NCBI GenBank assembly: GCA_029570835.1
Contig: JAKPTX010000117.1
Span: 17,151 to 81,150, forward strand
Origin: Bacteroidota bacterium
GTDB taxonomy: Bacteria > Bacteroidota > Bacteroidia > Bacteroidales > WCHB1-69
Reading direction: 5' to 3'
DNA length: 64,000 bases
The notes under the pieces are model-generated. The model was not told the DNA's origin. It searched no databases and worked only from the letters and a program-made list of their open reading frames with translations. The position numbers and the translations under genes are program-made. Shown here one piece after another: positions 1,848-19,922 of the stretch; within the stretch, counting starts at the first letter, position 1, and every line of letters begins with the position of its first letter.

Positions 1848-3737
1848 ATGAAGAAGTTTATTCAAAAAATGAGCGTTTTGCCCTCCTCGGTGATATTAAT
1901 TTTTGATATCTGTTGTGTCTTCATTGCGGCCATTTTGGCAGTCTTTATCCGCGGAAATATTGGATTACCTTCCAAGCTCACAATTGACGACTACCTGATC
2001 GCTCCTTTTATGATTGTTTTGATTCGGTCTCTCGTGTTTTTAGCTTTTGGAACACACCGGATGGTAGTGCGTTATACGGACACCAAAAACCTGCTTACCA
2101 TCTTCTTCGCTTCCGTTATCGGATCCCTGATCCTCTTTATGATCAACTTCTTTATGGATTTTAAAGGACTCCCCCGGATTATCCCTACCTCCATCATTTA
2201 CATTGAACTACCGATTACTATTGCTTTTTTGATCTTCTATAGAATCCAGTTCAAAGCCTACTATCTCGAAACCATCAATCCGACAAAACTGAAGAGAAAT
2301 GTGGTTATTTTTGGTGCCGGAGAGAGTGGAATCGTCACCAAAAGAGTATTTGACAGAGATCAAATCAGCAAATATAATGTGGTTGCCTTTTTTGATGAAG
2401 ACCCCAATAAGATTGGTATGACGCTGGAGAGTTTAAAGGTGCTTCCCTTTTCACAACTATCCGACTTTTTCGCCAAAAACAATATCTCCATTATCATTAT
2501 CTCCATTCAAAACCTGCCGGCAGCCAAGAAAAACGAAATCACCGAGATTGCGCTGCTGCATGATGTGAAAGTATTGGTTGTGCCTCCGGTGTTGAAGTGG
2601 ATTAACGGGGAATTGAGCTTTAAACAGATTAAACAGATAAAAATTGAGGAACTACTTGAAAGAGAGCCGATTCAGATGGATCAATCTTTGGTAAGTCCCG
2701 AAATCTATGGCAAAACGATATGGATTACAGGTGCAGCCGGCTCGATTGGAAGTGAGATTGTGCGCCAGCTCCTCTCCTTCGGATTTAAAAAGTTAGTTCT
2801 GATTGACAATGCCGAAACCCCTATGTTTTATCTCACCAACTTTTGCAATAGTCAAAATTACAGTGGCAGCATTGATATTCTGTTGATGGATATCACCGAC
2901 AAGAAGCGCATTGAAAAAGTGATGCAAGAGGAAACTCCCGACATCATTTACCACGCAGCTGCCTACAAGCATGTTCCTGTAATGGAAGAGAATGTCGGCG
3001 CAGCGATTAAGACCAATGTGGAAGGAACTAAAAACCTGGCTGATTTAGCTGTGCAGTACAAGGTGGATAAATTTGTGATGATCTCCACAGATAAAGCTGT
3101 CAATCCGACCAGTGTAATGGGTGCTTCCAAAAGAATTGCGGAGATTTATGTTCAATCGTTAAACTTTGAGCAGCCTCACACCAAGTTTATTACCACCCGT
3201 TTTGGGAATGTTTTAGGTTCCAATGGTTCCGTTATTCCTCTTTTTAGGAAACAAATAGAAAAGGGGGGACCCCTCACCGTGACCCACCCCGATATCACTC
3301 GTTACTTCATGACCATCTCAGAGGCTTGTCAATTGGTGATTACTGCAGGAGCCATGGGCGATGGAGGAGAGATCTTTATCTTTGATATGGGAGAATCTGT
3401 GAAGATTTACGATTTGGCGGTGAAAATGGTCAAACTCTCCGGACTGACCCTGGGAAAAGATATCAACATCGAATTTACCGGATTGCGCCCCGGAGAAAAG
3501 CTATACGAAGAGTTGTTGGCAAACAAAGAAAACACCAAGCAAACCACCCATGAAAAGATCATGATTGCCAACGTAATCCGCTACCCTTACGACGAAGTAG
3601 TCAATAAAGTTGAATCCCTCATCCGCATGCAAGACGAAGACCCACTACAAATCGTCAAAAAGATGAAAGAGATTGTCCCTGAATTTTACAGCCAAAACTC
3701 CACCTTTGCGGTGTTGAATGGGCCAAAGGTGGGATAG
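1848..3737 (+). CDS. CapD/PglF-like membrane-anchored nucleoside-diphosphate sugar dehydratase
   Basis: Four N-terminal TM segments, GAGESG, TGAAGSIGSE, HAAAYKHVP, ISTDKAVNPTSVMGASKR, RFGNVLGSNGSVIP. Confidence 0.93.
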   Translation: MKKFIQKMSVLPSSVILIFDICCVFIAAILAVFIRGNIGLPSKLTIDDYLIAPFMIVLIRSLVFLAFGTHRMVVRYTDTKNLLTIFFASVIGSLILFMINFFMDFKGLPRIIPTSIIYIELPITIAFLIFYRIQFKAYYLETINPTKLKRNVVIFGAGESGIVTKRVFDRDQISKYNVVAFFDEDPNKIGMTLESLKVLPFSQLSDFFAKNNISIIIISIQNLPAAKKNEITEIALLHDVKVLVVPPVLKWINGELSFKQIKQIKIEELLEREPIQMDQSLVSPEIYGKTIWITGAAGSIGSEIVRQLLSFGFKKLVLIDNAETPMFYLTNFCNSQNYSGSIDILLMDITDKKRIEKVMQEETPDIIYHAAAYKHVPVMEENVGAAIKTNVEGTKNLADLAVQYKVDKFVMISTDKAVNPTSVMGASKRIAEIYVQSLNFEQPHTKFITTRFGNVLGSNGSVIPLFRKQIEKGGPLTVTHPDITRYFMTISEACQLVITAGAMGDGGEIFIFDMGESVKIYDLAVKMVKLSGLTLGKDINIEFTGLRPGEKLYEELLANKENTKQTTHEKIMIANVIRYPYDEVVNKVESLIRMQDEDPLQIVKKMKEIVPEFYSQNSTFAVLNGPKVG

Positions 3738-3872
3738 ATTTTGGATTTGTTATGTTTTCTCTTTTTTTAGTATAACCCTATTATTTCTTTTTCATTATGA
3801 GGTTAATTCAAGAATATTAGACTATAAAAAAACAAAAATTCTTTTGAAACATGTTATTAATTAAAAAATCTG

Positions 3873-3880
3873 TATATTTG
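3873..3880 (+). promoter_or_regulatory. Bacteroidota -7 promoter box (TATATTTG)
   Basis: Matches TAnnTTTG upstream of the 4049/4219 gene pair. Confidence 0.55.
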
Positions 3881-4048
3881 CACCGGTAAATCAAGTGTAA
3901 TCCTATCCAAAAATTGAAGGTCAAATTCAAATATATGAATATACGCAAATGTTGTATTCGTATATCACAAATTAGGTATTATGTTCTAATTTATCAAAGT
4001 TACACGATTGAAAAACTAATTATTTTATAAATAAAATCTAGATAGACT

Positions 4049-4222
4049 ATGGAAACAAATCAAATTAAACTTTTGAATTCTCTTGCAAAGGAAATAAAAA
4101 CCAAAAAAAAAGATAAAACAGGAATTATTATTACTCTTCAATCAGCTAAAATTCTCACAAAGCAAGGTAACTTTACTGGTAAATTTAACAATTTAAACCG
4201 TATCGTGATAACTGCTAAATGA
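4049..4222 (+). CDS. Small basic 57-aa protein, putative antitoxin or partner of the downstream gene (not in the ORF track)
   Basis: Read by hand: METNQIKLLNSLAKEIKTKKKDKTGIIITLQSAKILTKQGNFTGKFNNLNRIVITAK. The stop overlaps the next start as ATGA (4219-4222). Confidence 0.7.
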   Translation: METNQIKLLNSLAKEIKTKKKDKTGIIITLQSAKILTKQGNFTGKFNNLNRIVITAK

Positions 4223-4857
4223 GTATTTACAATAATAGACCAAATCTTACAATTGGGTTTCATGGTTGCGATGAAATCGTAAGAGATAATTTAGTAAATA
4301 ATCCTAATTCAGTTAAGAAAAGCCAGGAAACATATGATTGGCTTGGGAATGGTTTTTATGTGTGGGAAAACAATTATGAGCGAGCACTCCAGTGGGCAAA
4401 AGATAAGAAATTAAGAGGAACACTAGAAGTACCATCAGTCGTTGGTGTTATATATCTGTTGGACTATTGTTTAGATTTTACTGATTCTAAGTTTATTGAT
4501 GTTCTTTCTGAGTATTACCAATTATTCAAAGATGACTTAAAAGTAAGTGGTAAAACTTTACCTAAAAATAAAGACTTACCCAAAGACCAATATCATGACC
4601 TAATCTTAAGAGAATTAGATTGTGCCGTTATTGAATATTTGCATCAGAAAATTGGAGAAAAAATTATTCAAAACAAAACAGAAAAAGGTTTTAGCGAACT
4701 TAGAGCCTTTGATACAGTTAGGGGAATTTTTACAGAAGGCGGACCTGCATTTGATGGAGCTGGAATTCAGTTAAAAAGTCATATTCAGGTTTGTATAAGA
4801 AACCTAAATTGCATAAAGGGTTTTTTTATCCCAAGAAAAGAAATTAAATTTACATAG
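4219..4857 (+). CDS. Hypothetical protein with ADP-ribosyltransferase-like motifs (putative toxin)
   Basis: GFHGC ... WLGNGFYVWE ... HIQVCIR resembles the HG / GxGxY / late-strand layout of PARP/ART-like folds. The fold assignment is inference. Confidence 0.55.
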   Translation: MSIYNNRPNLTIGFHGCDEIVRDNLVNNPNSVKKSQETYDWLGNGFYVWENNYERALQWAKDKKLRGTLEVPSVVGVIYLLDYCLDFTDSKFIDVLSEYYQLFKDDLKVSGKTLPKNKDLPKDQYHDLILRELDCAVIEYLHQKIGEKIIQNKTEKGFSELRAFDTVRGIFTEGGPAFDGAGIQLKSHIQVCIRNLNCIKGFFIPRKEIKFT

Positions 4858-5037
4858 AACCCTGTACATAATACTTAGTTTATCACAAACAGAAGTAGGT
4901 TGTTATTATGATTACTTTCCCTTTCCAACCTCATTTGATTCTTGTGTATAGGTTTGTACTGCCGCACCATAAAATGAGCTAATATTAAAATTGGATTTCG
5001 GGAGGCGGATTTATTTTTGAGTTTCCATTTTTTATTG

Positions 5038-5045
5038 TATCTTTG
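5038..5045 (+). promoter_or_regulatory. Bacteroidota -7 promoter box (TATCTTTG) for the R-M operon
   Basis: TAnnTTTG about 110 nt upstream of the MTase start. Confidence 0.5.
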
Positions 5046-5157
5046 TCTCGTAAATTATACGTCACTAACAAATATAAAATATTTAAAATTTAGAGACAAC
5101 TTTAACCAATTAAAAGCTTTTTAAAAAAATAATCTTGCTAAAATAACTATTGAAAAA

Positions 5158-6123
5158 ATGGAAGTACAAGAGCCGCTATTTGACTACGTTTGTCCGAATA
5201 TCGTTTATACAATTAAAAACGGTGACTGCTTAACTGTTCTTAAAAAAATTGAAGACAACAAATTTGACCTTATATTAACATCTCCACCTTATAATGTGGG
5301 AAAATCATATGAGACAAAAACAAGTATTGAAAAATATCTTGAAACACAAGAAGAAATAATATCTGAACTTACAAGGACATTATCTGACAAGGGAAATCTT
5401 TGTTGGCAAGTTGGTAATTACGTTGATAAAGGAGAGGTTTTCCCACTTGACATATTCTATTATCAAATATTCAAAAAGTACGGTCTGAAACTCCGCAATC
5501 GTATTATTTGGTATTTTGGCCATGGATTGCATGCTAACAAGCGTTTTAGTGGACGTTATGAAACTATACTTTGGTTTAGCAAAACAGACGATTATATTTT
5601 CAATCTTGATAATGTTAGAGTTCCTTCAAAATATCCGGGAAAAAGACATTTTAAAGGTCCCAAAAAAGGTCAACTGTCAGGAAATCCGTTAGGTAAAAAC
5701 CCCAGTGATATATGGGAAATAATTGAACAGGATTGGGATAAAGCAATGTGGAATATACCAAACGTGAAATCAAATCATCCAGAAAAAACCGAGCATCCCT
5801 GCCAGTTTCCTATTGAATTAGTTGAACGCTGTATCTTAGCATTAACGGATGAAAATAGTTGGGTTCTTGATCCATTTGCTGGTGTTGGATCAACAGTAAT
5901 TGGAGCTATAAAAAACAAACGCAATGGAATGGGAATAGAAAAGGAAAAGGAATACTGTGAAATTGCCAATAAACGAATTGAAGATCTCAAAGAAGGGAGA
6001 TTAAAAATTAGACCAATAAATAAACCAATACATAAACCGACAAACAAAGATAAAATTGCTCAAATTCCAAAAGAGTGGGCTGAACTTAAATTTATAAATA
6101 ATAATGAAGTAAACAAACACTAA
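5158..6123 (+). CDS. Site-specific DNA methyltransferase (N4-C/N6-A, beta class)
   Basis: TSPPY catalytic motif precedes HPCQFP and the DPFAGVGST SAM-binding motif. Confidence 0.93.
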   Translation: MEVQEPLFDYVCPNIVYTIKNGDCLTVLKKIEDNKFDLILTSPPYNVGKSYETKTSIEKYLETQEEIISELTRTLSDKGNLCWQVGNYVDKGEVFPLDIFYYQIFKKYGLKLRNRIIWYFGHGLHANKRFSGRYETILWFSKTDDYIFNLDNVRVPSKYPGKRHFKGPKKGQLSGNPLGKNPSDIWEIIEQDWDKAMWNIPNVKSNHPEKTEHPCQFPIELVERCILALTDENSWVLDPFAGVGSTVIGAIKNKRNGMGIEKEKEYCEIANKRIEDLKEGRLKIRPINKPIHKPTNKDKIAQIPKEWAELKFINNNEVNKH

Positions 6124-6737
6124 TGAAAATAGCACAAAAATATTCACACCTGAACGGAGAAGAATACCTTATCGTTCATCACAATAACCTATACGAAGAA
6201 ATTAAACAAGTTATTGAAAGTGTTGATGCTGAGCAATTTAAAACAAAAATCAGTAAAGAAAAGAGAAAAAGTGGTAGCTTTCTTTTCTCTCCAATTGAAT
6301 TAAATAAAGCCTTTAATGCGGAGTTCCATGAAAGAGAATGGGCAGAAAGTAGATACAACTATTACATTACTCTTAATAGAGAATTAATGGAACAAAGTGT
6401 TCTAATGCCTGCTAAAGAACAAAAAGAATTCCTTATTGCTAACGGGGAGATAGAACCAATTTATAGTTACAACCAAACTGACTTTGTTAAAGACAAAATT
6501 GCTGTCGAAGTTCAGTTTGGGAAGTATGCTTTTGTTGCATTTGATTTATTTGTAAAACATATGCTATTTTACTCAGGAGGAGTTATCGACTTGGGAATTG
6601 AAATTCTACCAACAAAGAAAATGCAAACACAAATGAGTAGTGGTGTAGCTTACTACGAAGGAGAAGTTTACAACGTAATGCGCCAAGGACGAAATAATCC
6701 ACCAGTTCCATTGTTAATTTTGGGAATCGAACCATAA
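6123..6737 (+). CDS. BglII/BstYI-family type II restriction endonuclease
   Basis: YSHLNGEEYL start, NQTDFVKDKIAVEVQFGKY (D...ExQ active site), terminal PVPLLILGI. Coupled to the MTase by a TAATG overlap. Confidence 0.85.
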   Translation: MKIAQKYSHLNGEEYLIVHHNNLYEEIKQVIESVDAEQFKTKISKEKRKSGSFLFSPIELNKAFNAEFHEREWAESRYNYYITLNRELMEQSVLMPAKEQKEFLIANGEIEPIYSYNQTDFVKDKIAVEVQFGKYAFVAFDLFVKHMLFYSGGVIDLGIEILPTKKMQTQMSSGVAYYEGEVYNVMRQGRNNPPVPLLILGIEP

Positions 6738-7023
6738 CGAATAAGAAGAAGCCCAGCGTGTAACGTTGTCTATACAATATTTGGGAATTAATTATTTATA
6801 CAGCATTACATTTCCCTCTCAGCACGTCCATTATCAACAGAGACCCAATTCGAAACGGGCAACAACAGTAACGGAAAGCCACCCTTAATTTCAGATCCGG
6901 TGTCTTCGAGAACCTCAGTCACCGGAGTGGAATGTGGTTAGGGCTCTCAAAACTATTGGAACACCAAACTAATCTCGTAACTCTTAATTCCTCTGCCCCC
7001 ATTATTTCCAAAAAGGTATAATT

Positions 7024-7075
7024 TTCCAGAGTGGGGAAATAAAATAACTAAAAAGGAAAGCCTTGTCTGCCCCCC
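7024..7075 (+). repeat. Bipartite motif TTCCAGAGTGGGG-N30-CTGCCCCCC, copy 1
   Basis: Spacer 7037-7066 is 30 nt; followed by a T-tract. Confidence 0.9.
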
Positions 7076-7136
7076 TTTTTTTGAAGGTAGAAATAAGAAG
7101 GAAGAAGGTAGAATTAAAGGCGGAAATCGGAATGAA

Positions 7137-7293
7137 CAATTACGAATTACGAATTACGAAACCGAAAATTTTAATTGAACGCGATTATTGTAGGGACAGG
7201 TCGCGACCTGTCCTGGAGTAATGAATAAAAATAACGTCATGGTCATAGAGATAGGGCATGCCCTGTCTCCATGATGTTGTTATGCAACAGATT
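7137..7293 (+). repeat. 157-bp dispersed repeat, copy 1 (heptamers plus two REP-like palindromes)
   Basis: Three mismatches versus 9702-9858; partial third copy from 14641. Confidence 0.92.
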
Positions 7294-7457
7294 AATTTTT
7301 GTGTCAAATATTTGATATTCAACATTTTTATGGAATCATTAATTCAATTTTTAATTTATGTGTTTGGTTGTACCGCCTGTCCGCCTTCTTTTTATTCGTA
7401 ATTGTTTCTGTATCTTTGCCGTTCAATTAGACGTTGTGTATAATTAAATTAAAAATC

Positions 7458-8180
7458 ATGAGAAATTTTAAATTATTAGCTGTAATGCTTTTAGGAGTGG
7501 TATTTGCTGTTTCATCTTGTAAAAAGGATGATGACCCTGATCAGACCCAAATACCAAAAGATGGTTTAGTTGCATATTATCCATTCAATGGAAATGCAAA
7601 GGATTTAAGCGGCAAAGGAAATCACGGAACTGTTCATGGTGATGTAGTATTAACAACTGACAGAAAAGGAAATAGTAATAGTGCATACGATTTCCCGGGG
7701 GTTGCATTCAATTATATCAGTGTTCCTCATAATCCATCATTAGCATTAGATGTTTTTACAATTAATGCCTGGATTTTTACAAAGACAGACTATGGATATG
7801 GTCAAGTAGTTCAAAAAAACAGAGATATTTTCGGTGGGCATTACGGTCTTTACACCAACTGTGTTATTGGAAAAATAGACTATGAAAATGATGTTCAAGC
7901 CTCATCTCCGGAAAACCCAAGTATTGGAAAATGGCATATGATCACAGGTTCTGTTTCAGGAAAAAAAGCAAAATTTTACATTGATGGAGTATTAATGGAT
8001 GAGTCCATAGCAACCGATAAGTTTGTTTATTCAGGTTCTGATGATTTAGCTATTGGAATGCACTATTATGAAGGTGTTCCGGATCATTGGACATATCCAT
8101 ACAAAGGCAAAATTGACGATATTAGAATATATAACAGAGTACTGAGCGATAAAGAAATTCAAGCCCTCTATAATGAGTAA
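7458..8180 (+). CDS. LamG/concanavalin-A-like domain lipoprotein
   Basis: Lipobox AVSSC; GLVAYYPFNGNA and GKIDDIRIYNRVLS LamG motifs; start placed at ATG 7458. Confidence 0.85.
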   Translation: MRNFKLLAVMLLGVVFAVSSCKKDDDPDQTQIPKDGLVAYYPFNGNAKDLSGKGNHGTVHGDVVLTTDRKGNSNSAYDFPGVAFNYISVPHNPSLALDVFTINAWIFTKTDYGYGQVVQKNRDIFGGHYGLYTNCVIGKIDYENDVQASSPENPSIGKWHMITGSVSGKKAKFYIDGVLMDESIATDKFVYSGSDDLAIGMHYYEGVPDHWTYPYKGKIDDIRIYNRVLSDKEIQALYNE

Positions 8181-8237
8181 ATCAATATCTATTTCACATT
8201 TTTAGTCACAATTGATTCAACTTAAACCTCAACAACC

Positions 8238-8960
8238 ATGATCAGAGTTCTGCTTTTTTTGCAATTATTACTTTTTATTTCCTGTGGTGGACAGCATATG
8301 AAGTACCAAACATCCACTTATGATGATTCGGAATTTGAAAGTTTTGTGAATTCTCAACAGGAAAAGCTTCGGGAACTTGACAAGGCAGAAGTTTTTAGAT
8401 CCATCCATGCAAAATTGTTCACCGCGTTACCCGAAGAACATCAAAATTATTTCACAACAAAACCTGATTACAGACTGCTTAGCTTCGCTAAAGGAGATCT
8501 GTTTTTAAATCAAAAACAAGACTTTGCATTGGTTGTGTACGATGCAAAAAATGTAAGGATTTCAATCCTGGTGATTGATGAAAATAGAAACCGATACAAT
8601 GAACTTTTCAGGGATATAAAAGTTGAAAATGGCTTGGAAAATGTGGAGTGCCATTACCATTCTTCAAGGACTCCCGACTACCAAATTGGTGATGAAATTG
8701 TATATCAGGCTCATTCTCTGATGGAAAACCCGGAAGAATTCCTTGACTTCACTTTGTGTAAGATAACACCCATTTCTAAAGATGAAAGTTTTATCACAGA
8801 TGAGGGATGCTTTTCGATGAATGAGAAAAAAGAGGAATTACTCAATATCAATTCATTATCTGTATCGACAAGTTTTGTGTACAACAACTGGGAATCTCTG
8901 AAATATGACAAAAAGAGAGAGCTGTTTACAATATTTTATGGTCAGGCGTTTGCGGACTAA
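8238..8960 (+). CDS. Hypothetical lipoprotein
   Basis: Signal peptide with FISC lipobox; 240-aa ORF. Confidence 0.75.
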   Translation: MIRVLLFLQLLLFISCGGQHMKYQTSTYDDSEFESFVNSQQEKLRELDKAEVFRSIHAKLFTALPEEHQNYFTTKPDYRLLSFAKGDLFLNQKQDFALVVYDAKNVRISILVIDENRNRYNELFRDIKVENGLENVECHYHSSRTPDYQIGDEIVYQAHSLMENPEEFLDFTLCKITPISKDESFITDEGCFSMNEKKEELLNINSLSVSTSFVYNNWESLKYDKKRELFTIFYGQAFAD

Positions 8961-9062
8961 CATTTTAAAGGTAGAAGGTAGAAGGTAGAAGGCAGAATTA
9001 AAGGCGGAAGGCGGAAGGCGGAAGGCGGAATGAATAAATTTAGAAATTAGAATTATTTAAAA
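8961..9062. repeat. Heptamer tandem arrays J2 (AAGGTAG x3 plus AAGGCAG; AAGGCGG x4)
   Basis: Directly visible at 8968-9030. Confidence 0.9.
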
Positions 9063-9680
9063 ATGAAAACATTATCACTCATCAATCTGTTTTTAATTAT
9101 TGCTTTGTTGGGATGCAATGCTCCTGCAACTGACAATGATCAAAATGATGCAATCATCCAAGAGAGCAATAGTGTCAAAAAAATCGGGGAGGCAAATGGA
9201 GATTCCGGCAAAATTTTAAGTGCTGACAAAGTTGCCATCGGGATGACCATTGACGAGCTTAAAAAAGCATATCCCAATGCGAAATTTATTGAAGAACCTC
9301 TTTATATGTACGGGATTGATAGTGAAGAGTCCGGATTGCTTGTGGTGAACAATAATGAAAAATTACTTTTTGTGTGGGTATCAGAAGATGGTCATATAAA
9401 AGGAATTACAATCTTATCCCCTTCCATTGTAATCGACTCCAATGTTTCTGTCGGCATGAGCTTTCAGGAGTTTCTTAAAAAGTATCCCGATACCCAATTG
9501 ACTGTTAGTCTGGTTGATGAAGGTGTTGAATATTATCACGTAAAAGATAAAAATTACATCATAGAATTTTTGACAAAACCTGATAATAGAGTCGGCGAAT
9601 ATGAGGAGGAAGGCGTGGAAGCCAAATCAATCCGAATTGCAAGACCTAACGCAAAAATTGATAGAATCACGATGAATTGA
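9063..9680 (+). CDS. Hypothetical lipoprotein
   Basis: LLGC lipobox; internal repeat IGMTIDELKKAYP / VGMSFQEFLKKYP. Confidence 0.78.
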   Translation: MKTLSLINLFLIIALLGCNAPATDNDQNDAIIQESNSVKKIGEANGDSGKILSADKVAIGMTIDELKKAYPNAKFIEEPLYMYGIDSEESGLLVVNNNEKLLFVWVSEDGHIKGITILSPSIVIDSNVSVGMSFQEFLKKYPDTQLTVSLVDEGVEYYHVKDKNYIIEFLTKPDNRVGEYEEEGVEAKSIRIARPNAKIDRITMN

Positions 9681-10153
9681 TTTCGGATTTCGGATGGAAT
9701 CCAATTACGAATTACGAATTACGAAACCGAAAATTTTAATTGAACGCGATTATTGTAGGGACAGGTCGCGACCTGTCCTGGAGTAATGAATAAAAATAAC
9801 GTCATGGTCGTAGAGACAGGGCATGCCCTGTCTCCATGATGTTGTTGTGCAACAGATTTATTTTTATGATATATGTTTGACATTCAAGGATTTACGAAGT
9901 TGACAATTTAAATAAAACGCAATTGTAGGGGCAGGGCTTGTCCCTGCCCTTTTCCAGAGTGGGGTGATAAAATAACAAAAGTGCGAAATATGATCTGCCC
10001 CCCATTTTTTTGAAGGCAGAAATAAGAAGGAAGAAGGTAGAATTAAAGGCGGAATTAAAAAAATTCCGCCTTCCGCCTTTTTTCGATTCGTAATTCGTAA
10101 TTCGTAATTGATTTGTATTTTTGCAAATTAAATCAACTAACCGGTGTGATAGT
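9681..10153. repeat. Composite intergenic mosaic J3
   Basis: ATTTCGG x2; 157-bp repeat 9702-9858; REP-like 9925-9949; bipartite motif 9952-10003; TTCCGCC and TCGTAAT arrays; -7 box 10116-10123. Confidence 0.9.
9952..10003 (+). repeat. Bipartite motif, copy 2
   Basis: Spacer 9965-9994 is 30 nt. Confidence 0.9.
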
Positions 10154-11542
10154 ATGAATATTTCAAAATCAAGATTCATTGAAAGTCAAAATTGTCCGAA
10201 AATATTGTGGTTAAACTTGAACCGTATTGAAGAAAAGGCAGAAGAGACTGAAAGTCAAATTGTTCGGATGAATATCGGAACTTCGGTGGGTGTCCTGGCA
10301 CGGGAATATTTTGGGGAGTATGAATTGGTGGACTTTCCGTATGATGAATATTCCAATAAACTCTCGAAAACACAGGAATTGCTGGAAAAAGATACTGAAA
10401 TTATTGCCGAAGCTACCTTTCTGACTGATGGAATTTGCTGTAGCGTCGATATTTTACGGAAAACTGAAAAGGGTTATGATTTGATAGAAGTGAAAAGTGT
10501 CAATAATCTGAAAGGGTATTATCACTACGATATTGCGTTTCAGTATCACGTCCTCAAAAGTTGCGGATTGAACATTGAACACGCCTACCTCATGCACCTC
10601 AACGGAGATTATGTGCGGTGGGGAGAGTTGGATTTACAGCAGCTTTTCAAATTGGATGATGTAACGGATTCTGTTATAGCAAAAAATGCAGAGATTACAG
10701 ATACAGTTAAAATACTGCAAGAAGTTGCAGCTCAGGAACTTGAACCTGAAATTGAAATGGGTAGTCAGTGTGAAAATTTTGTATATGGAGGATATTGTCC
10801 CTATTATGATTATTGCCATCAAAATGAAGAGATTCCCGAAGAGGTTGCAGTTGAAAAGTTTGAGAGAATCGACAAAGATGAGATTGCCAACTTCCTGGAA
10901 AAGTTTTCATATCCAATCTATTTCCTTGATTTTGAGACCTATATGGCGGTAATTCCACCATACGACGGACTCAAGCCTTCGGGACAAACACCTTTTCAAT
11001 ATTCATTACATATTTTACACGAAAATGGAGAATTGGAGCATAAAGAGTATCTTGGATATCCCGATAGTGACCCGCGCGTTGGGTTAATCAAACAGATTTG
11101 TGATGATATTCCTCTAAACGCCTGTGTTGTAGCATATTTTATTCCGTTTGAACGAACTCGCCTGAAAGAATTGGCCTATTTTGCAGAAAACAGGAATGAT
11201 TTGCAACATTATGCGGAGCATTTGAACAATATCTGGGAGAATATGATCGATTTGATTGTGCCTTTCAAAAAAAAATACTACGAAAATGAGGCAATGGAAG
11301 GGCGTTCCAGTATCAAATTGGTGTTGCCTGCCCTCTTCCCCGATGACCCCGAATTGAATTACCATAATCTTGAAGGAGTTCAAAACGGAACGGATGCGAT
11401 GACTATTTATCCTTTGTTAACAACCGACAATTACACCCCTGAAGAGATCGAAGTAAAACGCCAACAACTTCTAAATTACTGCAAATTAGACACTTACGCC
11501 ATGGTGAAGATTTTCCAAAAACTCATTCATGTCATCTCTTGA
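10154..11542 (+). CDS. DUF2779-type protein: Cas4-like PD-(D/E)xK domain fused to a DnaQ/RNase H-like domain
   Basis: ISKSRF..QNCPK, VDIL..LIEVK, DIAFQY, Cys cluster CENFVYGGYCPYYDYC, then FLDFET and YCKLDT; ATG at 10154. Confidence 0.75.
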   Translation: MNISKSRFIESQNCPKILWLNLNRIEEKAEETESQIVRMNIGTSVGVLAREYFGEYELVDFPYDEYSNKLSKTQELLEKDTEIIAEATFLTDGICCSVDILRKTEKGYDLIEVKSVNNLKGYYHYDIAFQYHVLKSCGLNIEHAYLMHLNGDYVRWGELDLQQLFKLDDVTDSVIAKNAEITDTVKILQEVAAQELEPEIEMGSQCENFVYGGYCPYYDYCHQNEEIPEEVAVEKFERIDKDEIANFLEKFSYPIYFLDFETYMAVIPPYDGLKPSGQTPFQYSLHILHENGELEHKEYLGYPDSDPRVGLIKQICDDIPLNACVVAYFIPFERTRLKELAYFAENRNDLQHYAEHLNNIWENMIDLIVPFKKKYYENEAMEGRSSIKLVLPALFPDDPELNYHNLEGVQNGTDAMTIYPLLTTDNYTPEEIEVKRQQLLNYCKLDTYAMVKIFQKLIHVIS

Positions 11543-11564
11543 ACAATTAGTAAAATATCTGAAA

Positions 11565-12395
11565 ATGAAACAATTATCATATCTATTGCTGGCTTTGTTT
11601 ATTTTGACGAGTTGCTCAAATAACAAAGTATCAACTTCTAATCAAGTTGACAATTTAAAACAACACTTTATTCCCATCCTCAACGGGGTTTGGGTTTTGA
11701 CGGATTACATCGAAGAAATTGAAAAAACGCAATCACCTTTAAAGGCATCCGATAAATTAAATGGTATCGTTGCTATGGATATTGATGAAAATATGCAATC
11801 GGATACTATTTTTGTCGGAATCAGTATCAACAATCATGAAGGGTACAACTTTACGACTTATTTTGTGCAAGGACAAAACTCAACCAGCCTGAAAACTAAC
11901 ATTCCGGATTACGATGAAGAGAGTAATTATTTTGAATTGGGTTATGAAACCGGGAATAATCAAACCTTTTTAGTTCTTTATCACTACAACAAAAACAATC
12001 AACTGATTGACAAAAAAGAGTTTACGAAAGTCTCTGACAAAGTACAAAATAGTGATGTTTCCCGAGGATTGCAATATATCGTAAACAAGAAATTATTCTC
12101 AGGCAATTATCTATCGATTGACAGCAAAAACTCCACCGGAAAAGTCAAATTCAACAGTGACGGCTCTTTGACCGGCTTCCCGGACTTCAAAACTTATTAT
12201 GTGATAACCGATTTTTTGGGAGGACCCGTGGCTACTTTTGACGAAATTATATTCAATTTATACGAAGAAAACTCAAAAGGTTTCGCTTTCAAAATCGATG
12301 GTGACACAACATTTTTATACAGCACAACCGGTGATGAGGATAAAGGAGAACCTCTGCAAATTGATAAAGTACAATATAGACTTGCGAGACAATGA
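11565..12395 (+). CDS. Hypothetical lipoprotein
   Basis: MKQLSYLLLALFILTSC lipobox from ATG 11565. Confidence 0.78.
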   Translation: MKQLSYLLLALFILTSCSNNKVSTSNQVDNLKQHFIPILNGVWVLTDYIEEIEKTQSPLKASDKLNGIVAMDIDENMQSDTIFVGISINNHEGYNFTTYFVQGQNSTSLKTNIPDYDEESNYFELGYETGNNQTFLVLYHYNKNNQLIDKKEFTKVSDKVQNSDVSRGLQYIVNKKLFSGNYLSIDSKNSTGKVKFNSDGSLTGFPDFKTYYVITDFLGGPVATFDEIIFNLYEENSKGFAFKIDGDTTFLYSTTGDEDKGEPLQIDKVQYRLARQ

Positions 12396-12402
12396 TCCAA
12401 CA

Positions 12403-12852
12403 ATGAAAAACATAAAAAAAATATTTCACAGGCTCAGTTATCTGCAATATCCTTTGCTGTTGGCAGCCTTTTATTTCCTTATAAAGCCACTATTCAAAGG
12501 ATTTGATTACCTTTCTGCAAATCCTGAATATCTTTTCAATACATACAGTAATGCACTCATACTATTTGGAGTAACCCTTAGTTTTTCAGCTCTGCAAGAC
12601 CCTTCCAGAACATCGCTGCGGTTTGAAAAGAAAATTTGGGAAAATCCCAAAAAAGCGAAACTGCTTTTAAGTATCACCCTGATCACTACTCTCATCTTTT
12701 TTACGGCAGGATTACTTGGATTTTGGATGTCCGGCAGTTCTCAAAAGGAGTTTGCTTTGGGTTCCATAGTATTAGGCATCGGACTTTTAGGCTATTTGAA
12801 ATTTCAAATAGAACTGTTTGAAACTCACAAAGGAAAAGCATCAGAGGAATAA
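12403..12852 (+). CDS. Hypothetical 4-TM membrane protein
   Basis: ATG 12403 follows the upstream stop; four hydrophobic segments. Confidence 0.72.
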   Translation: MKNIKKIFHRLSYLQYPLLLAAFYFLIKPLFKGFDYLSANPEYLFNTYSNALILFGVTLSFSALQDPSRTSLRFEKKIWENPKKAKLLLSITLITTLIFFTAGLLGFWMSGSSQKEFALGSIVLGIGLLGYLKFQIELFETHKGKASEE

Positions 12853-13291
12853 GGATCTTAACGAAGGCGGAGGGCGGAAGGCGGAATCCAATTACGAATT
12901 ACGTTTTGAACTATCACGGAATCAATTCTAAATTCTAAATTCTAATTTCTAAATTTACAATCATGTCACCCCTACGGGGTTATTTGGGCTCTTGGGGTCA
13001 ACATTTTGCTACAATCATGTCACCCCTACGGGGTTATTTAAAAGTCGGAAGGCGAAAGTTTTTGCTATAAATTGAAAATGGTTAAACATCTAATTTATTT
13101 CATTGATATTCAAATAATTCCGAAATCCGAAATCCGAAATTATGTTTATTCCGCCTTCCGCCCTCCGCCTTCCGCCTTTTTTCGATTCGTAATTCGTAAT
13201 TCGTAATTGTTTGGTATTTTTGTAACCAAAAGGGAATTGGTGTTGTCTTATGGGTACAAATAGATTATTCACTTAACAAAAAAACAAAATT
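12853..13291. repeat. Composite intergenic mosaic J4
   Basis: GGCGGAA array at 12863-12886 with its inverted copy at 13149-13172; TTCTAAA array; two 30-bp direct repeats 12956-12985 and 13010-13039; TCCGAAA x3; TCGTAAT x3. Confidence 0.9.
13215..13248 (+). promoter_or_regulatory. Overlapping housekeeping -7 box (TATTTTTG) and putative ECF-sigma promoter (TGTAAC...GTCT)
   Basis: TATTTTTG 13215-13222; TGTAAC 13221-13226; GTCT 13245-13248, directly upstream of an ECF sigma operon. Confidence 0.55.
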
Positions 13292-13678
13292 ATGTTAGTA
13301 GCAGTTATCGCTATTATTTGCGTTGTCGGTTTACCGATAGGATTTGGAATGTATTTGGGGTTAACAGCCATTAGAGCTGAACACAAAGAACGTATGAATT
13401 TGATTAATCAAGGTATTATTCCTCCGGAAAAAATTAAAAGAAAAGCCACTCCCAATCAATTTGTATCACTTCGGAATGGAATTGTTCTCGTTGCACTCGG
13501 AATCGGAATTATTCTAGGATTTTTATGTTCTGAAAAGATGGCTATACCTCAATACAATAAATTTTGGATTATTGCCGCAAGTATCGTGTTCTTTCTCGGA
13601 TTAGGCTATTTGAGCTACTTTTTGATTACACGAAAAATGCCTGATGCACAACAAAAAGAGGAAGTAAAACAAGAATAA
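13292..13678 (+). CDS. DUF6249-like membrane protein
   Basis: TM-KERMNLINQG-...-LRNGIVLVALGIG-TM pattern; first gene of the ECF operon. Confidence 0.7.
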   Translation: MLVAVIAIICVVGLPIGFGMYLGLTAIRAEHKERMNLINQGIIPPEKIKRKATPNQFVSLRNGIVLVALGIGIILGFLCSEKMAIPQYNKFWIIAASIVFFLGLGYLSYFLITRKMPDAQQKEEVKQE

Positions 13679-13688
13679 TCCGCTTTGA

Positions 13689-14255
13689 ATGAACGAAAAA
13701 GAGCAAATACAGCAAGTGCTTTCGGGCAACACGTTCGCATTCAGCTATTTTGTTGAAACCTATCAAGATATGGCGATGACAATCGCCTATCGCATTTGTA
13801 GAAACAGGCAAAACGCGGAGGATATAGTGCAGGATAGTTTTGTAAAAGCATACCGCTACTTACACACTTTCAGAAGTGATGCCAAATTTTCGTCCTGGTT
13901 TTATCGCATTGTTTACAATACAGCAGTTTCGTACACTAAAACAAAAATGTGGGTCAACGATTCTGACATAGAACTCACAGAAATTCAGGAAGAAAATGTC
14001 GACTACAATATAGAAACTCAGATTCTTGCCACTGAACGAACTGAAATAGTGCAAAACGTGTTAAATCAAATGCAGAAAGGTGATGCGTTGCTGCTTACTT
14101 TGTATTATATGGAAGATAACTCGATCAAAGATATTGTAAAAATTACAGGACTCAACGAATCCAATGTAAAAGTGAAACTATTTCGTGCCCGAAACCGATT
14201 TAAAGAGATGATTCTCAAATCAAATGAGTTGAAACTCATTGTATCCACAAAATAA
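13689..14255 (+). CDS. ECF RNA polymerase sigma-70 factor
   Basis: AEDIVQDSFVKAY, FSSWFYRI, region 4 SNVKVKLFRARNRFK. Confidence 0.93.
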   Translation: MNEKEQIQQVLSGNTFAFSYFVETYQDMAMTIAYRICRNRQNAEDIVQDSFVKAYRYLHTFRSDAKFSSWFYRIVYNTAVSYTKTKMWVNDSDIELTEIQEENVDYNIETQILATERTEIVQNVLNQMQKGDALLLTLYYMEDNSIKDIVKITGLNESNVKVKLFRARNRFKEMILKSNELKLIVSTK

Positions 14256-14266
14256 AAACCAAAACG

Positions 14267-14635
14267 ATGAACAAGAAAAATAACATAGATCCCGAAGATG
14301 AATTGATCCGCCAATTGATGCGGTCAGCAAAAGAACAGGCACCTGAAAATTTGAAATACCGGATTATGCAACAGATTAATACTGAAAATGCATTAACCCC
14401 AAAACCCGCTCCAATAAAAAAACGGACAGAAAATGTACTGAGAGATTTTATTGGTATTTTTGGCACCATGTACGCTTTGCTGGCATTACTCACCGGTATC
14501 GCATATCTGTCGAAAGATGAAAATTTTTTGCTGTCGCCTGAATTTATAGGTGTTGTGCTGTTGGTCACTGTGGTTGCCTCAACATTTTGGTTTTTTACGC
14601 GATTGGATGAAAAAATTCGACAAAAACAGAAATAG
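14267..14635 (+). CDS. Putative membrane anti-sigma factor
   Basis: Directly follows the ECF sigma; APENLKYRIMQQI motif plus two C-terminal TM helices. Confidence 0.7.
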   Translation: MNKKNNIDPEDELIRQLMRSAKEQAPENLKYRIMQQINTENALTPKPAPIKKRTENVLRDFIGIFGTMYALLALLTGIAYLSKDENFLLSPEFIGVVLLVTVVASTFWFFTRLDEKIRQKQK

Positions 14636-15086
14636 GAAAAATTACGAATTACGAAACCGAAAATTTTAATTGAACGCGATTATTGAAGGGACAGGTCGCG
14701 ACCTGTCCTAGAATAATGAATAAAAATAACGTCATGGTCGTAGAGACAGGGCTTGTCCCTGCCCTTTTCCAGAGTGGGGAAACAACCACCCCGCCCTTCG
14801 GGCACCCCTCCTTCCCGAGGAGGGGAGTTGAAATAACCAGAGAGTGATGCCTATTCTGCCCCCCATTTTTTTATTTCCAAAATAATATATATAATTAAAT
14901 ATCAACGGGTTATATTAAATAAAGACCTCAACACCAAAATTCCGAAATCCGAAATCCGAAATCCGAAATTATGTTTGAATCCGCCCTCCGCCTTCAAGAA
15001 ATTCTAAATTCTAAAATCTAAATTCTAAATTTTTAATGTATATTTGTTGCGTGAATTAGATAGCGGACAACCATAAAACAAACCCA
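14636..15086. repeat. Composite intergenic mosaic J5
   Basis: Truncated 157-bp repeat from 14641; chimeric REP 14740-14764; interrupted bipartite motif 14767-14864; IHF-consensus 14900-14912; TCCGAAA x4; TTCTAAA array; -7 box 15039-15046. Confidence 0.9.
14767..14864 (+). repeat. Bipartite motif, copy 3, carrying a 46-nt hairpin insertion
   Basis: Removing 14784-14829 restores a 30-nt spacer. Confidence 0.8.
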
Positions 15087-16475
15087 ATGAAAGTCGGATT
15101 AATTTTCCCCAATAAAGACAGAAAAGACAAAACTATCCATGTCGGATTGGGATATCTCGCTTCTTATGCAAGATTGGAACATCCGGAGATTGAATTTTCA
15201 TTGTTGGATACCAGAGTTGCCACGAAAAAGGAAACCAAAAAGTTTTATCAGACTGATTTTGATTTGATTGGTATTACTGTTTTATCTCCCGTTTATTACG
15301 AGGTTATCGAAGTTTTTAATTTCATACGCACAAACAAGCCCGATACTCCAATCTGTTTGGGAGGTCCTTATGTAACAACAATCATGAAGGAAGTTTTTGA
15401 GGATACTCCGGCTGATTTTGCTGTGTATGGAGAGGGTGAAATCACATTCTCACAATTGCTGAGCCATCTGAAAGGTAAAATGCCAATAGAAGAAATTGAA
15501 GGTATCATGTATCAAAAAGATGGAGCAATAGTAACTAATCCGCCACGAGACCAAATTGAGGATTTAGACTCCATACCTTATCCTGCCTACGACCTGTTTA
15601 AGATGGACAGATATCCTATGCATCGTCTTGTATCCAGCAGAGGATGTCCGTACAAATGTGTATTTTGTAATTCATCATCTATTTGGTTGGGGAAATGGAG
15701 AAAACGAGACCCTGAAAAAGTGGTTGATGAGATTGAGTATCTGATCAAGAATTACAAAAAGAAAACGGTCTTTTTTAATGACAACAGCTTTAATGTTGAC
15801 CTAAAAAGAGTTGAAACTTTCTGCCATACGATATTGGAAAGAAATTTGAAAATTCTTTGGTCTACTCCTGTACGGGTTGAAATTATCACCAGTGAGATTG
15901 CTCAGTTAATGAAAAAGTCCGGCTGTTATAATGTTGGAATTGGCATTGAATCTGCCAATAACTCCATTTTGGAAAATATGCAGAAAAAAAACAGTATTGA
16001 AGCGATTCAAAAAGGGATTCGGATTTTCAAAGATGCCGGAATTGAAGTACTGGGACAGTTCGTCATTGGCAGTCCCGGTGATACATACGAAACGGTTAAG
16101 GAATCGATTGAATTTGCTAAGAATTCAGAGTTGGATTTCGTCATGTTTTATTCTATTTTACCCTTTAAAGGAACGGCTCAGTGGGATTATGTTTTGAAGC
16201 ACGGAACACTTTATAATGAGAAAATTCACGAGTATCATTCGATAAAACCCAGGATTGTTTTTGAAACCCCTGAATTCCCATACGCTGACAGATTAAAGGC
16301 AATAAACCTGGCAAAAAAGGAAGGATATTATTCTGATTCAAATGATAGAAATCTATTTTTTGATATCGGTAAAGATTTAGCAACCAAAATACAACAAATT
16401 CTACCTCACAGCATAGCAGAAAAACTCTATATTGCCATGAAAAACATTTACAGAAGAAGATTGAGAAAAAGCTGA
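15087..16475 (+). CDS. B12-binding domain radical SAM protein
   Basis: GLGYLAS and GGPYVT cobalamin-binding region, GEGE, SRGCPYKCVFC (CxxxCxxC), GIESA. Confidence 0.9.
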   Translation: MKVGLIFPNKDRKDKTIHVGLGYLASYARLEHPEIEFSLLDTRVATKKETKKFYQTDFDLIGITVLSPVYYEVIEVFNFIRTNKPDTPICLGGPYVTTIMKEVFEDTPADFAVYGEGEITFSQLLSHLKGKMPIEEIEGIMYQKDGAIVTNPPRDQIEDLDSIPYPAYDLFKMDRYPMHRLVSSRGCPYKCVFCNSSSIWLGKWRKRDPEKVVDEIEYLIKNYKKKTVFFNDNSFNVDLKRVETFCHTILERNLKILWSTPVRVEIITSEIAQLMKKSGCYNVGIGIESANNSILENMQKKNSIEAIQKGIRIFKDAGIEVLGQFVIGSPGDTYETVKESIEFAKNSELDFVMFYSILPFKGTAQWDYVLKHGTLYNEKIHEYHSIKPRIVFETPEFPYADRLKAINLAKKEGYYSDSNDRNLFFDIGKDLATKIQQILPHSIAEKLYIAMKNIYRRRLRKS

Positions 16476-16654
16476 ATAGGACTGCATATTTAAAACGAAT
16501 CGTAAAAAACAAAAAAAATCCGAAATAGTACGAATTTGAGTGTCAGATTAATTCTAAATTCTAATTTCTAAATTTAGGAATCGTAATTCGTAATTCGTAA
16601 TTGTTTCGTATATTTGTACCGTGAATAAAATCTTGCCACTAAATTAAAATAGAC
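16476..16654. repeat. Short mosaic J6 (TTCTAAA and TCGTAAT arrays plus promoter box)
   Basis: TCGTAAT x3 at 16581-16601, followed by TATATTTG 16609-16616. Confidence 0.8.
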
Positions 16655-17209
16655 ATGAAAAAATCCCCAATTGATTACAAGGAGATTCAAAGATTTATTA
16701 TTGAAAGTAGAGAAAATGGTAAAACTGACCAGGAAATTTATAATGAACTGGCTCCGAAATATTACGACAAAAAAACTCTGGCTCTGCTTATCAGAGGTAC
16801 CGTAACCAGGGAAAGAAAGGAAAAATATAAAAGATTAAACGGGCTTCTACTAGCTCTCATTGGCATAGCTATTGTACTCGAAATATTGTGGATCATAGCT
16901 TTTTCAATAACTTATAGTAGTTTTTGGGTTTTAATAGGCATTTTTATTATACCTCTATTTGCCGTTTTTCTTTTCTATCAGGTTTATCGATACAATGCAA
17001 TAGCTTATCAAATGGTTGGAATATTGGGAATTATAATTTTTATGCGTGCATTTCAGCTTACAGATGGTCATCGGCTTGCTATCATTATAAGCATACTGTT
17101 AGGTGGAGGTATTACCTTCCTGGGGTTTTATGTGAAAAACAAACTGATCCCCGGTTACAAACCCAGAAAACTCAAAAAGGATGCCGATGGGGAGTATATA
17201 TTGGATTAA
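16655..17209 (+). CDS. Hypothetical 4-TM membrane protein
   Basis: 184-aa ORF with a soluble N-terminus and four hydrophobic segments. Confidence 0.75.
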   Translation: MKKSPIDYKEIQRFIIESRENGKTDQEIYNELAPKYYDKKTLALLIRGTVTRERKEKYKRLNGLLLALIGIAIVLEILWIIAFSITYSSFWVLIGIFIIPLFAVFLFYQVYRYNAIAYQMVGILGIIIFMRAFQLTDGHRLAIIISILLGGGITFLGFYVKNKLIPGYKPRKLKKDADGEYILD

Positions 17210-17567
17210 ACTTTACCAATCAGCGCCTTCATACTTCTTATTTTTTCCTTATTTTTGAAATAAAAATAAAAAGGGGGATTTTGATTTCGGATTTCGGATT
17301 TCGGATTTCGGAAGTTAGCATTGCGCATTTTATTATATAACCCATTGATTTTTAATTATATATATTATTTTGAAATAAAAAATAAAAGGGGGCAGAATAG
17401 GTATCACTATGTTGATATTCCGTTTCCCCACTCTGGAATCGTAGAGACGCAACGCATTGCGTCTCTACAGCCGATTTAGAGGTCAGGTTTGTTCATCGTA
17501 ATTCGTAATTCGTAATTCGTAATTCGTAATTCGTAATTGGATTTCGACTTTCGACTTTATTATAGCT
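17210..17567. repeat. Composite intergenic mosaic J7 (largely an inverted counterpart of J5)
   Basis: ATTTCGG x4; IHF-consensus 17338-17350; bipartite motif on the minus strand 17388-17438; REP-like 17441-17468; TCGTAAT x6 17496-17537; TTTCGAC x2. Confidence 0.9.
17388..17438 (-). repeat. Bipartite motif, copy 4
   Basis: GGGGGCAG-N30 (17396-17425)-CCCCACTCTGGAA. Confidence 0.9.
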
Positions 17568-18020: not shown

Positions 18021-18142
18021 ACAATACTCAAACTTTAATCGTGAACTTAACAAATAAACGCCCAAAGATATCAATTATTTTTGTGTAAAACTTTGGTCAT
18101 ATTATATTTTTTTACGATATTTGCATATTAAACATTGCACTA

Positions 18143-19905: not shown

Positions 19906-19922
19906 TCCCTTTATCGCCCGTT

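Follow-up and report, generated by a model that had tools for sequence, protein, structure and literature searches.

BOX elements of Streptococcus pneumoniae are non-autonomous repeats of intergenic regions; their design is modular and their internal tandem units vary in number. Elhai and co-workers are said to have described, in 2008, cyanobacterial short tandemly repeated repetitive (STRR) heptamer arrays with nested small dispersed repeats. Repetitive extragenic palindromes (REPs) characteristically end in GTAG (PMC3733652) and are combined into composite structures, the bacterial interspersed mosaic elements (BIMEs; PMC2817692). In PMC3733652, GTAG repeats are listed for Proteobacteria, Cyanobacteria, Chloroflexi and PVC and not for Bacteroidetes. 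Intergenic repeats of the heptamer TAACTGA are reported from Beggiatoaceae, Cyanobacteria and five Bacteroidetes in PMC4679880, which cites a survey of Mrazek et al. In the order Bacteroidales, BrickBuilt of Porphyromonas gingivalis is presented as a transposable element of the miniature inverted-repeat type (MITE) with an internal minisatellite (PMC4596501). The locus considered here lies in a metagenome-assembled genome of the same order (GCA_029570835.1, G000 hereafter; 2.92 Mb in 277 contigs, 37.7 % GC). The window, i.e. the whole stretch analysed, comprises 64,000 nucleotides (contig C62, positions 17151-81150), and it contains an island of co-oriented accessory genes between a capD-like gene and dtd. 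Seven spacers between the units of this island, J1 to J7 (6738 to 17567), are composed of tandem heptamers and other small repeats. A preliminary description had interpreted them as the junctions of an integrase-less array analogous to integron cassettes or pdif modules. No description of these heptamer units or of such a mosaic in Bacteroidales was retrieved by a literature search.

The island is probably a variable accessory-gene stretch whose spacers were colonised by a lineage-specific, genome-wide family of mosaic repeats, which probably also promote insertions and deletions (indels). The repeats are dispersed, recently expanded and unstable, both by slippage and by gain or loss of whole mosaics of 0.5-0.7 kb, and where species-specific segments have their edges the repeats are found in excess. 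A repeat family of the same general kind as REP/BIME, heptamer arrays, STRR mosaics and BOX/BrickBuilt would be the most economical account of them. Comparisons were made mainly with G002, a sister species, and with G004, a complete genome of the same genus.

An all-against-all comparison of the 1157 intergenic regions of G000, in which regions with at least five partner regions were considered repeat-bearing, identified 201 such regions (17 %), 165 of them with at least 20 partners. The modules were thus not special to the array, and they also occupied the spacer adjacent to dtd and one between core genes. Convergent spacers were repeat-bearing most often (35 %), followed by tandem (15 %) and divergent ones (13 %). 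Exact heptamer arrays of at least three units numbered 246, and six related unit types accounted for 228 of these; periods of 5, 6, 8, 9 and 10 yielded 8, 10, 1, 1 and 0 arrays, respectively. When arrays of at least two units were counted, only 2-14 per unit type were situated inside open reading frames (ORFs), out of totals of 53-155. The island harbored 12 exact arrays of at least three units in 13.8 kb, against a genome mean of 1.16, and is the densest such stretch of the genome. Two loci resembled it in spacer occupancy (C59, ~86-95 kb, and C84, ~31-41 kb); gene orientation was mixed in both.

Four kinds of part were encountered in the junctions: tandem heptamers, a module of ~60-75 nt overall designated mod60, short GC-rich palindromes and a 186-nt composite (D1). 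Heptamer units were AATTACG, GATTTCG, GAAGGCG, GAAGGTA, TAAATTC and CGAAAGT, plus their complements. Module mod60 displayed conserved ends, CAGAGTGGGG ... CTGCCCCC (GGGG...CCCCCC), around a variable centre of ~30 nt. The GC-rich palindromes read GTAG...CTAC, and composites of parts extended over ~190-300 nt. Order, number and orientation of the parts varied across J1-J7; mod60 was in the forward orientation in J1, J3 and J5, inverted in J7 and missing from J2, J4 and J6.

The description of J1-J7 as mosaics of shared modules was borne out, each having between 19 and 134 partner regions. J1 (6738-7433, 130 partners) displayed mod60 (7004-7082), degenerate GAAGG-type heptamers (7070-7125), (AATTACG)3 together with the two-palindrome 186-nt composite (7137-7322) and, at 7411, a TATCTTTG box; repeat depth was below three left of 6961. 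J2 (8961-9062, 19 partners) consisted of (GAAGGTA)3 and (GAAGGCG)4 arrays immediately past a stop codon. J3 (9681-10120, 123 partners) contained GATTTCG units, (AATTACG)3 along with the 186-nt composite, a palindrome rich in GC, mod60 (9950-10010), a GGCGGAATT hairpin with a T-run, (TTCGTAA)3 and finally a TATTTTTG box. J4 (12853-13291; 134 partners for the region counted as 12396-13291) contained GAAGGCG units, AATTACG units, (AATTCTA)3, two copies of a CACCCC...GGGG hairpin element, (TCCGAAA)3, CCGCCTT units, (TTCGTAA)3 and a TATTTTTG box. J5 (14636-15086, 91 partners) was made up of a diverged copy of the 186-nt composite, mod60 (14811-14871), (TCCGAAA)4, CCGCC units, AATTCTA units and a TATATTTG box. 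In J6 (16476-16654, 95 partners), AATTCTA units were accompanied by (TCGTAAT)3 immediately 5' of a TATATTTG box, and J7 (17210-17567, 81 partners) displayed (GATTTCG)4, the inverted mod60, a GTAGAGACGCAA palindrome, (TCGTAAT)6 and CGACTTT units.

The same modules recurred elsewhere in the window, as had been noted before: between the core genes for a glmM-like phosphoglucosamine mutase and ribonucleotide reductase (21743-22114, 113 partners) and in two mosaic spacers around a 151-aa ORF (56102-56886 and 57343-57788, 147 and 108 partners). Repeat-poor spacers were found in the island as well, namely the two left of 6738 (one and no partner) and 8181-8237 (no partner).

Across the genome, mod60 was present in 126 copies on 48 contigs, and neither mod60 nor the heptamer arrays showed a polarity or orientation bias relative to genes. 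Of 125 mod60 copies, 48 had (AATTCGT)n upstream of them, the CACCCC hairpin was flanked by (AAATTCT)n on one side and (AAAGTCG)n on the other, and (AATTACG)n preceded 12 of 31 GGGACAGG palindromes. Since given heptamer types accompany given modules in this strand-specific manner, the parts form composite elements. Whole repeat clusters can be bounded by inverted heptamer arrays. Palindromes had low copy numbers: the commonest stem words occurred 7-20 times among exact hairpins with 8-bp stems, and looser patterns gave 8-31 copies per family. Four palindrome families started with GTAG, the tag being paired within the stem.

The motif (AATTACG)3 was found 148 times in G000, 89 times in G002 and 12 times in G016, against zero to two times in the other 28 genomes, and it was absent from G004, of which 60 kb contained no heptamer array. 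This abundance in G000 and G002, with near absence from the other relatives, indicates that the expansion is young. A multi-copy sequence of 1.5-2.6 kb beside AATTACG arrays was considered as a transposon and ruled out, as it corresponds to paralogous genes for a protein of ~885 aa. These genes (proteins of ~850-900 aa, 81-91 % DNA identity) were often located at contig ends beside AATTACG arrays; copies were found in G000 at C40:177156-179807, C40:7713-10418 and on C274, C260 and C194.

Like the STRR repeats of cyanobacteria, the repeats are intergenic tandem heptamers of few unit types, accompanied by tiny dispersed elements that lie within the arrays or next to them and give nested mosaics; they differ in phylum, unit sequences and core elements. 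Traits of the STRR type encountered here were the excess of period seven, the mostly intergenic location and copy numbers varying between relatives (six against two units, and three against none). The TAACTGA repeats (PMC4679880) are likewise abundant intergenic tandem heptamers of one preferred period with a sporadic, lineage-specific spread that includes Bacteroidetes. Those repeats lie mostly a few nucleotides upstream of start codons and in one orientation, whereas six other unit types were found here, without orientation bias and combined with other modules. BOX and BrickBuilt share with them the design of modular, non-autonomous intergenic repeats built from few boxes with variable internal tandem units. 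They differ in unit sizes and sequences; here, inverted heptamer arrays stood at the ends of one cluster only, and terminal inverted repeats with a clear target duplication were not seen.

Proteobacterial REP/BIME repeats with their REP-associated tyrosine transposases (RAYTs) also consist of short GC-rich palindromes joined with other motifs into spacer mosaics. They, too, are most frequent at the 3' ends of genes, differ among close relatives and form several families per genome. In contrast, GTAG belongs here to the stem (GTAG...CTAC) and is not an unpaired tag, palindrome copy numbers are low and heptamer arrays constitute much of the mosaic. The Y1 transposase genes of G000 also differ from RAYTs in not being flanked by junction palindromes. 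The sole full-length one (C113:608-1069) was flanked by hairpins of its own, which were unique to that locus and unlike the junction palindromes, and the junction palindromes were not found at the other two loci matching PF01797. The layout at C113:492-1302, a 154-aa Y1 (IS200-like) gene between direct copies of ~120 nt with several hairpins, was REPtron-like.

In a sample of 0.4 Mb, G002 was for the most part collinear with G000 (81-97 % nucleotide identity), and 394 kb of G000 in alignment chains with G002 were used to relate repeats to differences in gene content. Only 16 of the 116 spacers with both flanking genes aligned were repeat-bearing, against 12 of 23 at the edge of unaligned, species-specific segments (odds ratio 6.8, p = 1.5e-4); inside unaligned segments the number was six of 27. 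The enrichment was maintained when contig C62 was left out (11/21 vs 13/107, p = 1.2e-4) and for spacers of at least 100 nt (10/16 vs 10/51, p = 0.003), and it had the same direction in all three orientation classes. Among 23 indels or replacements of at least 300 bp, repeats were found at both edges of 13, at one edge of four and at neither edge of six. One of these six repeat-free indels was a 10.9-kb segment with a tyrosine-recombinase match (C92:94257-94724). The expectation of the preliminary description that breakpoints fall inside the junctions thus held in part: edges were enriched, but 16 repeat-bearing spacers separated genes whose adjacency is conserved.

Mosaics also came and went independently of genes. 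At three orthologous spacers, G002 displayed a mosaic of 488, 520 or 706 bp where G000 had a short empty site, while flanking genes were unchanged. One of the three mosaics ended in perfect inverted (GATTTCG)n arrays of at least 24 nt; no clear target duplication was seen at the three pairs of filled and empty sites. The internal spacers of recently acquired segments of low GC content were repeat-free (3738-5157 here, and C84 at 24.6-30 kb), which fits lineage-resident repeats spreading into spacers over time. The segment on C84 (C84:24661-30277) comprised 5.9 kb with eight minus-strand ORFs of GC 0.25-0.42, absent from G002; its left edge was situated in a repeat-bearing spacer and its internal spacers were without repeats.

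The island itself starts after the capD-like polysaccharide biosynthesis gene (1848-3737, + strand; Pfam Polysacc_synt_2, 1.9e-117), a conserved left anchor; at the amino acid level its G002 counterpart was 97 % identical and those of the genus's other genomes 71-74 %. Adjacency of alr and capD was kept in six of 80 related loci and also in G004 and G006; no island gene was found within 10 kb of capD in the 80 loci. The right anchor is dtd (17568-18074, - strand). As previously stated, all genes between the anchors are on the + strand: 14 ORFs of at least 60 aa and a 57-aa ORF (4049-4222). This same-strand run counted 27 genes (C62:78-34359) and took in upstream core genes, and runs of at least 15 genes made up 11 of the 776 runs of the genome; co-orientation is therefore not a property specific to the array. 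About 25 % of the 13.8-kb island was non-coding (sum of spacer lengths, with 12238-12852 taken as coding), compared with ~10 % genome-wide from crude ORF calls.

The short units were functionally unrelated to each other according to Pfam, NCBIfam, PADLOC and Atlas cluster assignments, which confirmed another earlier statement. The first unit (4049-4857, +) is a toxin-like pair of low GC content, in which the 57-aa ORF overlaps the start of a 212-aa DUF3990-like protein. The latter matched PADLOC PD-T4-9_A weakly (4.6e-6) and its nearest Atlas cluster was 'DUF3990 domain-containing protein', at a very high score; neither member of the pair matched Pfam or NCBIfam. It is followed by a type II restriction-modification (R-M) pair (5158-6737, +), an N6/N4 methylase (Pfam N6_N4_Mtase, 7.2e-54; PADLOC MTase_II, 1.5e-77) and a BglII-type endonuclease (Endonuc-BglII, 3e-28; REase_II, 2.9e-75). 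GC content of 3741-6806 was 0.30-0.35, against 0.377 for the genome. A three-gene segment specific to G000 (7434-9680, +) encodes a Laminin_G_3 protein (Pfam, 3.2e-20) and two products without assigned function, o8238 and o9063, with J2 inside. Next come a DUF2779/Cas4-like nuclease (10121-11542, +; Pfam DUF2779, 4.6e-38; PADLOC Cas4, 3e-8) and two ORFs (11529-12395 and 12238-12852, +) for which no family was found in Pfam, NCBIfam or PADLOC. The latter encode 288 and 204 aa and overlap by 158 nt in different frames; they possibly represent one frameshifted gene rather than two ORFs. The remaining units are a DUF6249 membrane protein with an extracytoplasmic function (ECF) sigma factor and a putative anti-sigma factor (13292-14635, +; Pfam, the anti-sigma factor by a weak NCBIfam match), a B12-binding radical SAM enzyme (15087-16475, +; Pfam) and o16655, a 184-aa protein without assigned function (16655-17209, +). 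Outside the island, adjacent TonB_C genes (window 28216-29962) displayed a tandem duplication of ~0.9 kb at ~80 % identity (repeat families D2, D3 and D20).

Gene content at the island differed in G002, so gene order and content are not fixed. G002 retained capD, the segment at 6807-7082, the gene for DUF2779 and the stretch 14974-21870, and lacked the other island genes; the Laminin_G unit, the DUF3990-like pair, the ECF operon and the R-M genes were absent at the DNA level. The order in G002 was capD, a 335-aa ORF, the shared single-copy segment, one short mosaic, the DUF2779 gene, a different and frameshifted membrane-protein gene and the contig end, inside a mod60 copy. A second G002 contig matched 14974-21870 throughout, hence J6 and J7 are conserved. 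The end of G002 contig C34 was situated inside J5.

Three differences in content could be resolved at the locus, and modules were present at both ends of one only. The first (3741-6807) is a textbook exchange of defence genes at a site with unchanged flanks, in which both ends lay outside repeated modules: G000 carried the DUF3990-like pair and the BglII-type R-M system after capD, and G002 the 335-aa ORF (L002:3179-4296), which matched neither NCBIfam nor PADLOC. Features of a genomic (defence) island, i.e. low GC content, R-M genes with a PD-T4-9_A-like gene and replacement in G002, were encountered in 3741-6806 only. The non-coding segment at its right edge was also present in G002: 6807-7082 aligned at 79 %, and a single-copy part of ~180 nt (6807-6990) was kept even though the upstream genes differ wholly. 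This part may represent a small RNA, or else a 3' element by which the fixed right edge of the swap site is marked. The second event concerns the three-gene unit at 7.1-10.1 kb, of which both ends were in modules; it was bracketed by direct repeats D1 (186 nt, 95 %) and D8 (56 nt, 96 %). The third, a replacement downstream of the DUF2779 gene, started at its stop codon, where no module was found. The DUF2779 gene was the sole island gene left of J5 kept by G002 (96 % nucleotide identity), and in place of 11529-12852 G002 had the membrane-protein gene, unrelated at the DNA level. That gene (G002 contig C40, L002:219-1287) was split into ORFs of 66 and 318 aa in a frameshift-like manner. The suggestion of mobile content at the junctions is supported by the differing gene content and by the three-gene unit, but not by the two events with an end outside the modules.

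Within the conserved part, J7 was collinear and contained six TCGTAAT units in G000 against two in G002, and the (TCGTAAT)3 block upstream of the TATATTTG box of o16655 was found in G000 only, being missing from the orthologous J6 of G002. The two o16655 orthologues were near-identical at their ends, but their similarity fell off strongly in the middle ~300 nt, and in J7 a diverged mod60 core was likewise enclosed by flanks that had hardly changed. Recombination that replaced sequence locally is suggested by both cases. A hypervariable mod60 core as a general trait was not retained: among 32 G002 copies tested (35 found), nine full-length matches were obtained from a noisy mapping, and the cores were 97 % identical in two of these nine.

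In five further genomes of the genus, 57-97 % complete, the DUF2779 and DUF6249 proteins were not found, matches to the Laminin_G protein were only distant and o16655 had relatives of 38-40 % identity in two of the five. The radical SAM enzyme was identical in G002 (100 % amino acid identity) and was found at 60-61 %, encoded at unlinked places, in G004 and G005, two of the four further genus members searched. In G004, capD was followed after ~2.1 kb by glmM, o19923 and a 4HBT gene in inverted order, and the divergent dtd/purK pair was kept elsewhere in the chromosome. Given this inverted glmM-4HBT block and the unlinked dtd-purK pair and radical SAM gene, all three local synteny breaks relative to G004 were placed in spacers with repeats (17210-17567, 19256-19419 and 21743-22114). 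Adjacencies free of repeats, namely alr-capD, dtd-purK and 4HBT-o19923-glmM, were conserved. A metagenome scan with the DUF2779 protein recovered only five relatives, and these were only 28-31 % identical, so no strain-level variants were obtained from it.

These observations bear on whether the locus is a true platform for repeat-guided capture or shuffling, with the mosaics as recombination sites served in trans or by homologous recombination, for example through Campbell-type integration of circles. Integron cassettes (attC/IntI) and pdif modules (XerC/D) resemble it in their short, unrelated units of one orientation, their related non-coding junctions and their variable content between relatives. 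The direct repeats around the three-gene unit (95 and 96 %) were far more alike than usual family members (68-80 %), segment edges were enriched ~7-fold genome-wide, and the G004 breaks and the record heptamer density point in the same direction. Nevertheless, the junctions had no common site, order or orientation. On reading J1-J7, no single shared 28-bp site of the pdif type was encountered, although no search with a dif-like model was made; nor did content and order, which differed among the junctions, provide an attC-type imperfect palindrome of constant polarity 3' of each unit. Integrase or transposase families were absent from the 60 window ORFs scanned against Pfam, in agreement with the preliminary description. 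A linked tyrosine recombinase or Y1 enzyme, which had been proposed as a check, was not found either: the genome contained ten matches to PF00589 and three to PF01797, all on contigs other than the 82.5-kb contig C62, and hence no IntI-type recombinase with an attI site stood beside the array.

Promoter-like sequences argue in the same sense. Across the genome, the Bacteroidetes-type -7 box TAnnTTTG (445 of 990 genes) had its peak 20-40 nt upstream of ORF starts. In the island it was found 23-120 nt upstream of the ORF starts at 5158, 7434, 13292, 15087 and 16655, and a further box was read at about 10110, upstream of the DUF2779 gene. As judged from these motifs, most island units carry their own promoter-like box, at a spacing usual for this genome, unlike promoterless cassettes. 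In addition, the modules are spread over 17 % of all spacers and the turnover of mosaics does not involve genes; no module is present where the defence-gene swap ends or where synteny breaks at the DUF2779 stop codon, repeat-bearing spacers occur at conserved adjacencies and other repeat-dense loci have mixed gene orientation. The capture platform thus appears unlikely, and its integron- or pdif-like form was not sustained. The part of the earlier interpretation that invoked homologous recombination between junctions is possible, and the interpretation as a whole was partly supported.

Regulation would be another function for the mosaics. They might mainly be terminators, insulators or promoter-upstream repeats tuned by copy number or varying in phase, the array then being a series of individually regulated units. 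(TTCGTAA)n or (TCCGAAA)n arrays ended directly at -33 upstream of TAnnTTTG boxes, the array upstream of o16655 was present in G000 and not in G002, and convergent spacers were the most occupied. In J3, a hairpin of inverted CCGCCTT units with a T-run behind it makes up a terminator-like site at 10046-10072. Heptamers near start codons were proposed as regulator sites in other phyla (PMC4679880). However, arrays and mod60 had no orientation bias relative to genes and whole mosaics were dispensable at orthologous spacers. Neither terminator-like sites (13 against 13.7 in shuffled sequence) nor sigma-70-like sites (66 against 62.3) exceeded controls, and the full TTTG-N-TAnnTTTG pattern gave eight matches against 6.0 expected. 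Rfam yielded no match in the whole window at gathering scores and none in 6600-7500 at E <= 1. Module mod60 was rejected as a structured RNA or terminator, since it displayed only a 4-bp GGGG/CCCC stem with weak folding (alifold -4.2 and -5.3, mean z ~-1.1). A mainly regulatory role is accordingly quite improbable.

The unit order might also be an assembly artefact, a chimeric path through repeats in a metagenome-assembled contig. G000 consists of many contigs and has 4.75 % contamination, contigs of G000 and G002 often end in these repeats, and nothing in G002 corresponds to the segments at 7.1-10.1 kb or 11.5-15.0 kb. On the other side, repeat copies are diverged (68-96 %) and exact arrays do not exceed 42 nt, so that unique assembly paths exist, and G002 independently supports the path from capD through 6807-7082 to DUF2779 as well as 14974-21870. 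Thirteen sequencing runs contained at least 92 % of the sampled 31-mers of 6700-15200, which shows their presence and not their order. The 20 runs with words of the locus came from 12 studies of activated sludge, wastewater, digesters, manure and bioreactors. An artefact is consequently very hard to believe.

The preferred reading remains that of a variable stretch colonised by mosaic repeats. The repeats would behave as selfish DNA of a non-autonomous kind, able to persist only where a spacer separates independent transcription units, and they would spread as non-autonomous elements and by slippage of their units. Dispersed homology and hairpin-prone DNA would then promote deletions, insertions and rearrangements, of which the three-gene unit with its 95-96 % direct repeats would be a clear example. 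The cassette-like appearance (short units, promoter-like boxes of their own, similar junctions) would be a by-product and not the work of a site-specific capture machine.

Several points weigh against this reading. No mobilising enzyme was found for the repeats, the flanks of the Y1 gene being different from the junction palindromes. Direct repeats flanked only two of the 11 gene-bearing or larger indels tested, and recombination between flanking repeats was therefore rejected as a general indel route. The edge enrichment may share a cause with the indels, such as tolerant spacers between independent transcription units, and not be causal; two genomes cannot separate these possibilities for the ~7-fold enrichment. 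The order of the units specific to G000 rests on one metagenome-assembled contig. Finally, passive colonisation alone does not explain why the densest heptamer cluster of the genome is situated here.

A more active part of the mosaics is conceivable, although we regard it as doubtful. Armed with heptamers and having burst in one Bacteroidales lineage, they would act as portable junctions, short transcription units being gained, lost and re-ordered between junction copies by general recombination without a dedicated integrase; promoter sequence lying upstream, hairpins and homology dispersed over the genome may be what they contribute. If true, portable junctions would be a homology-driven counterpart of cassette systems. 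They would also explain the edge enrichment and the presence of core units (dtd-purK, 4HBT-glmM and the radical SAM gene) between junctions here that are unlinked in G004.

With the colonised variable stretch as the probable explanation, an apparent new capture system is explained away. In its place stands an undescribed, recent expansion of mosaic repeats in uncultured Bacteroidales that are common in sludge and digesters, associated with differences in gene content between sister species. The repeats explain the fragmentation of assemblies from this lineage into many contigs. If the association is causal, the family would provide a tractable natural case of small non-coding repeats shaping an accessory genome.

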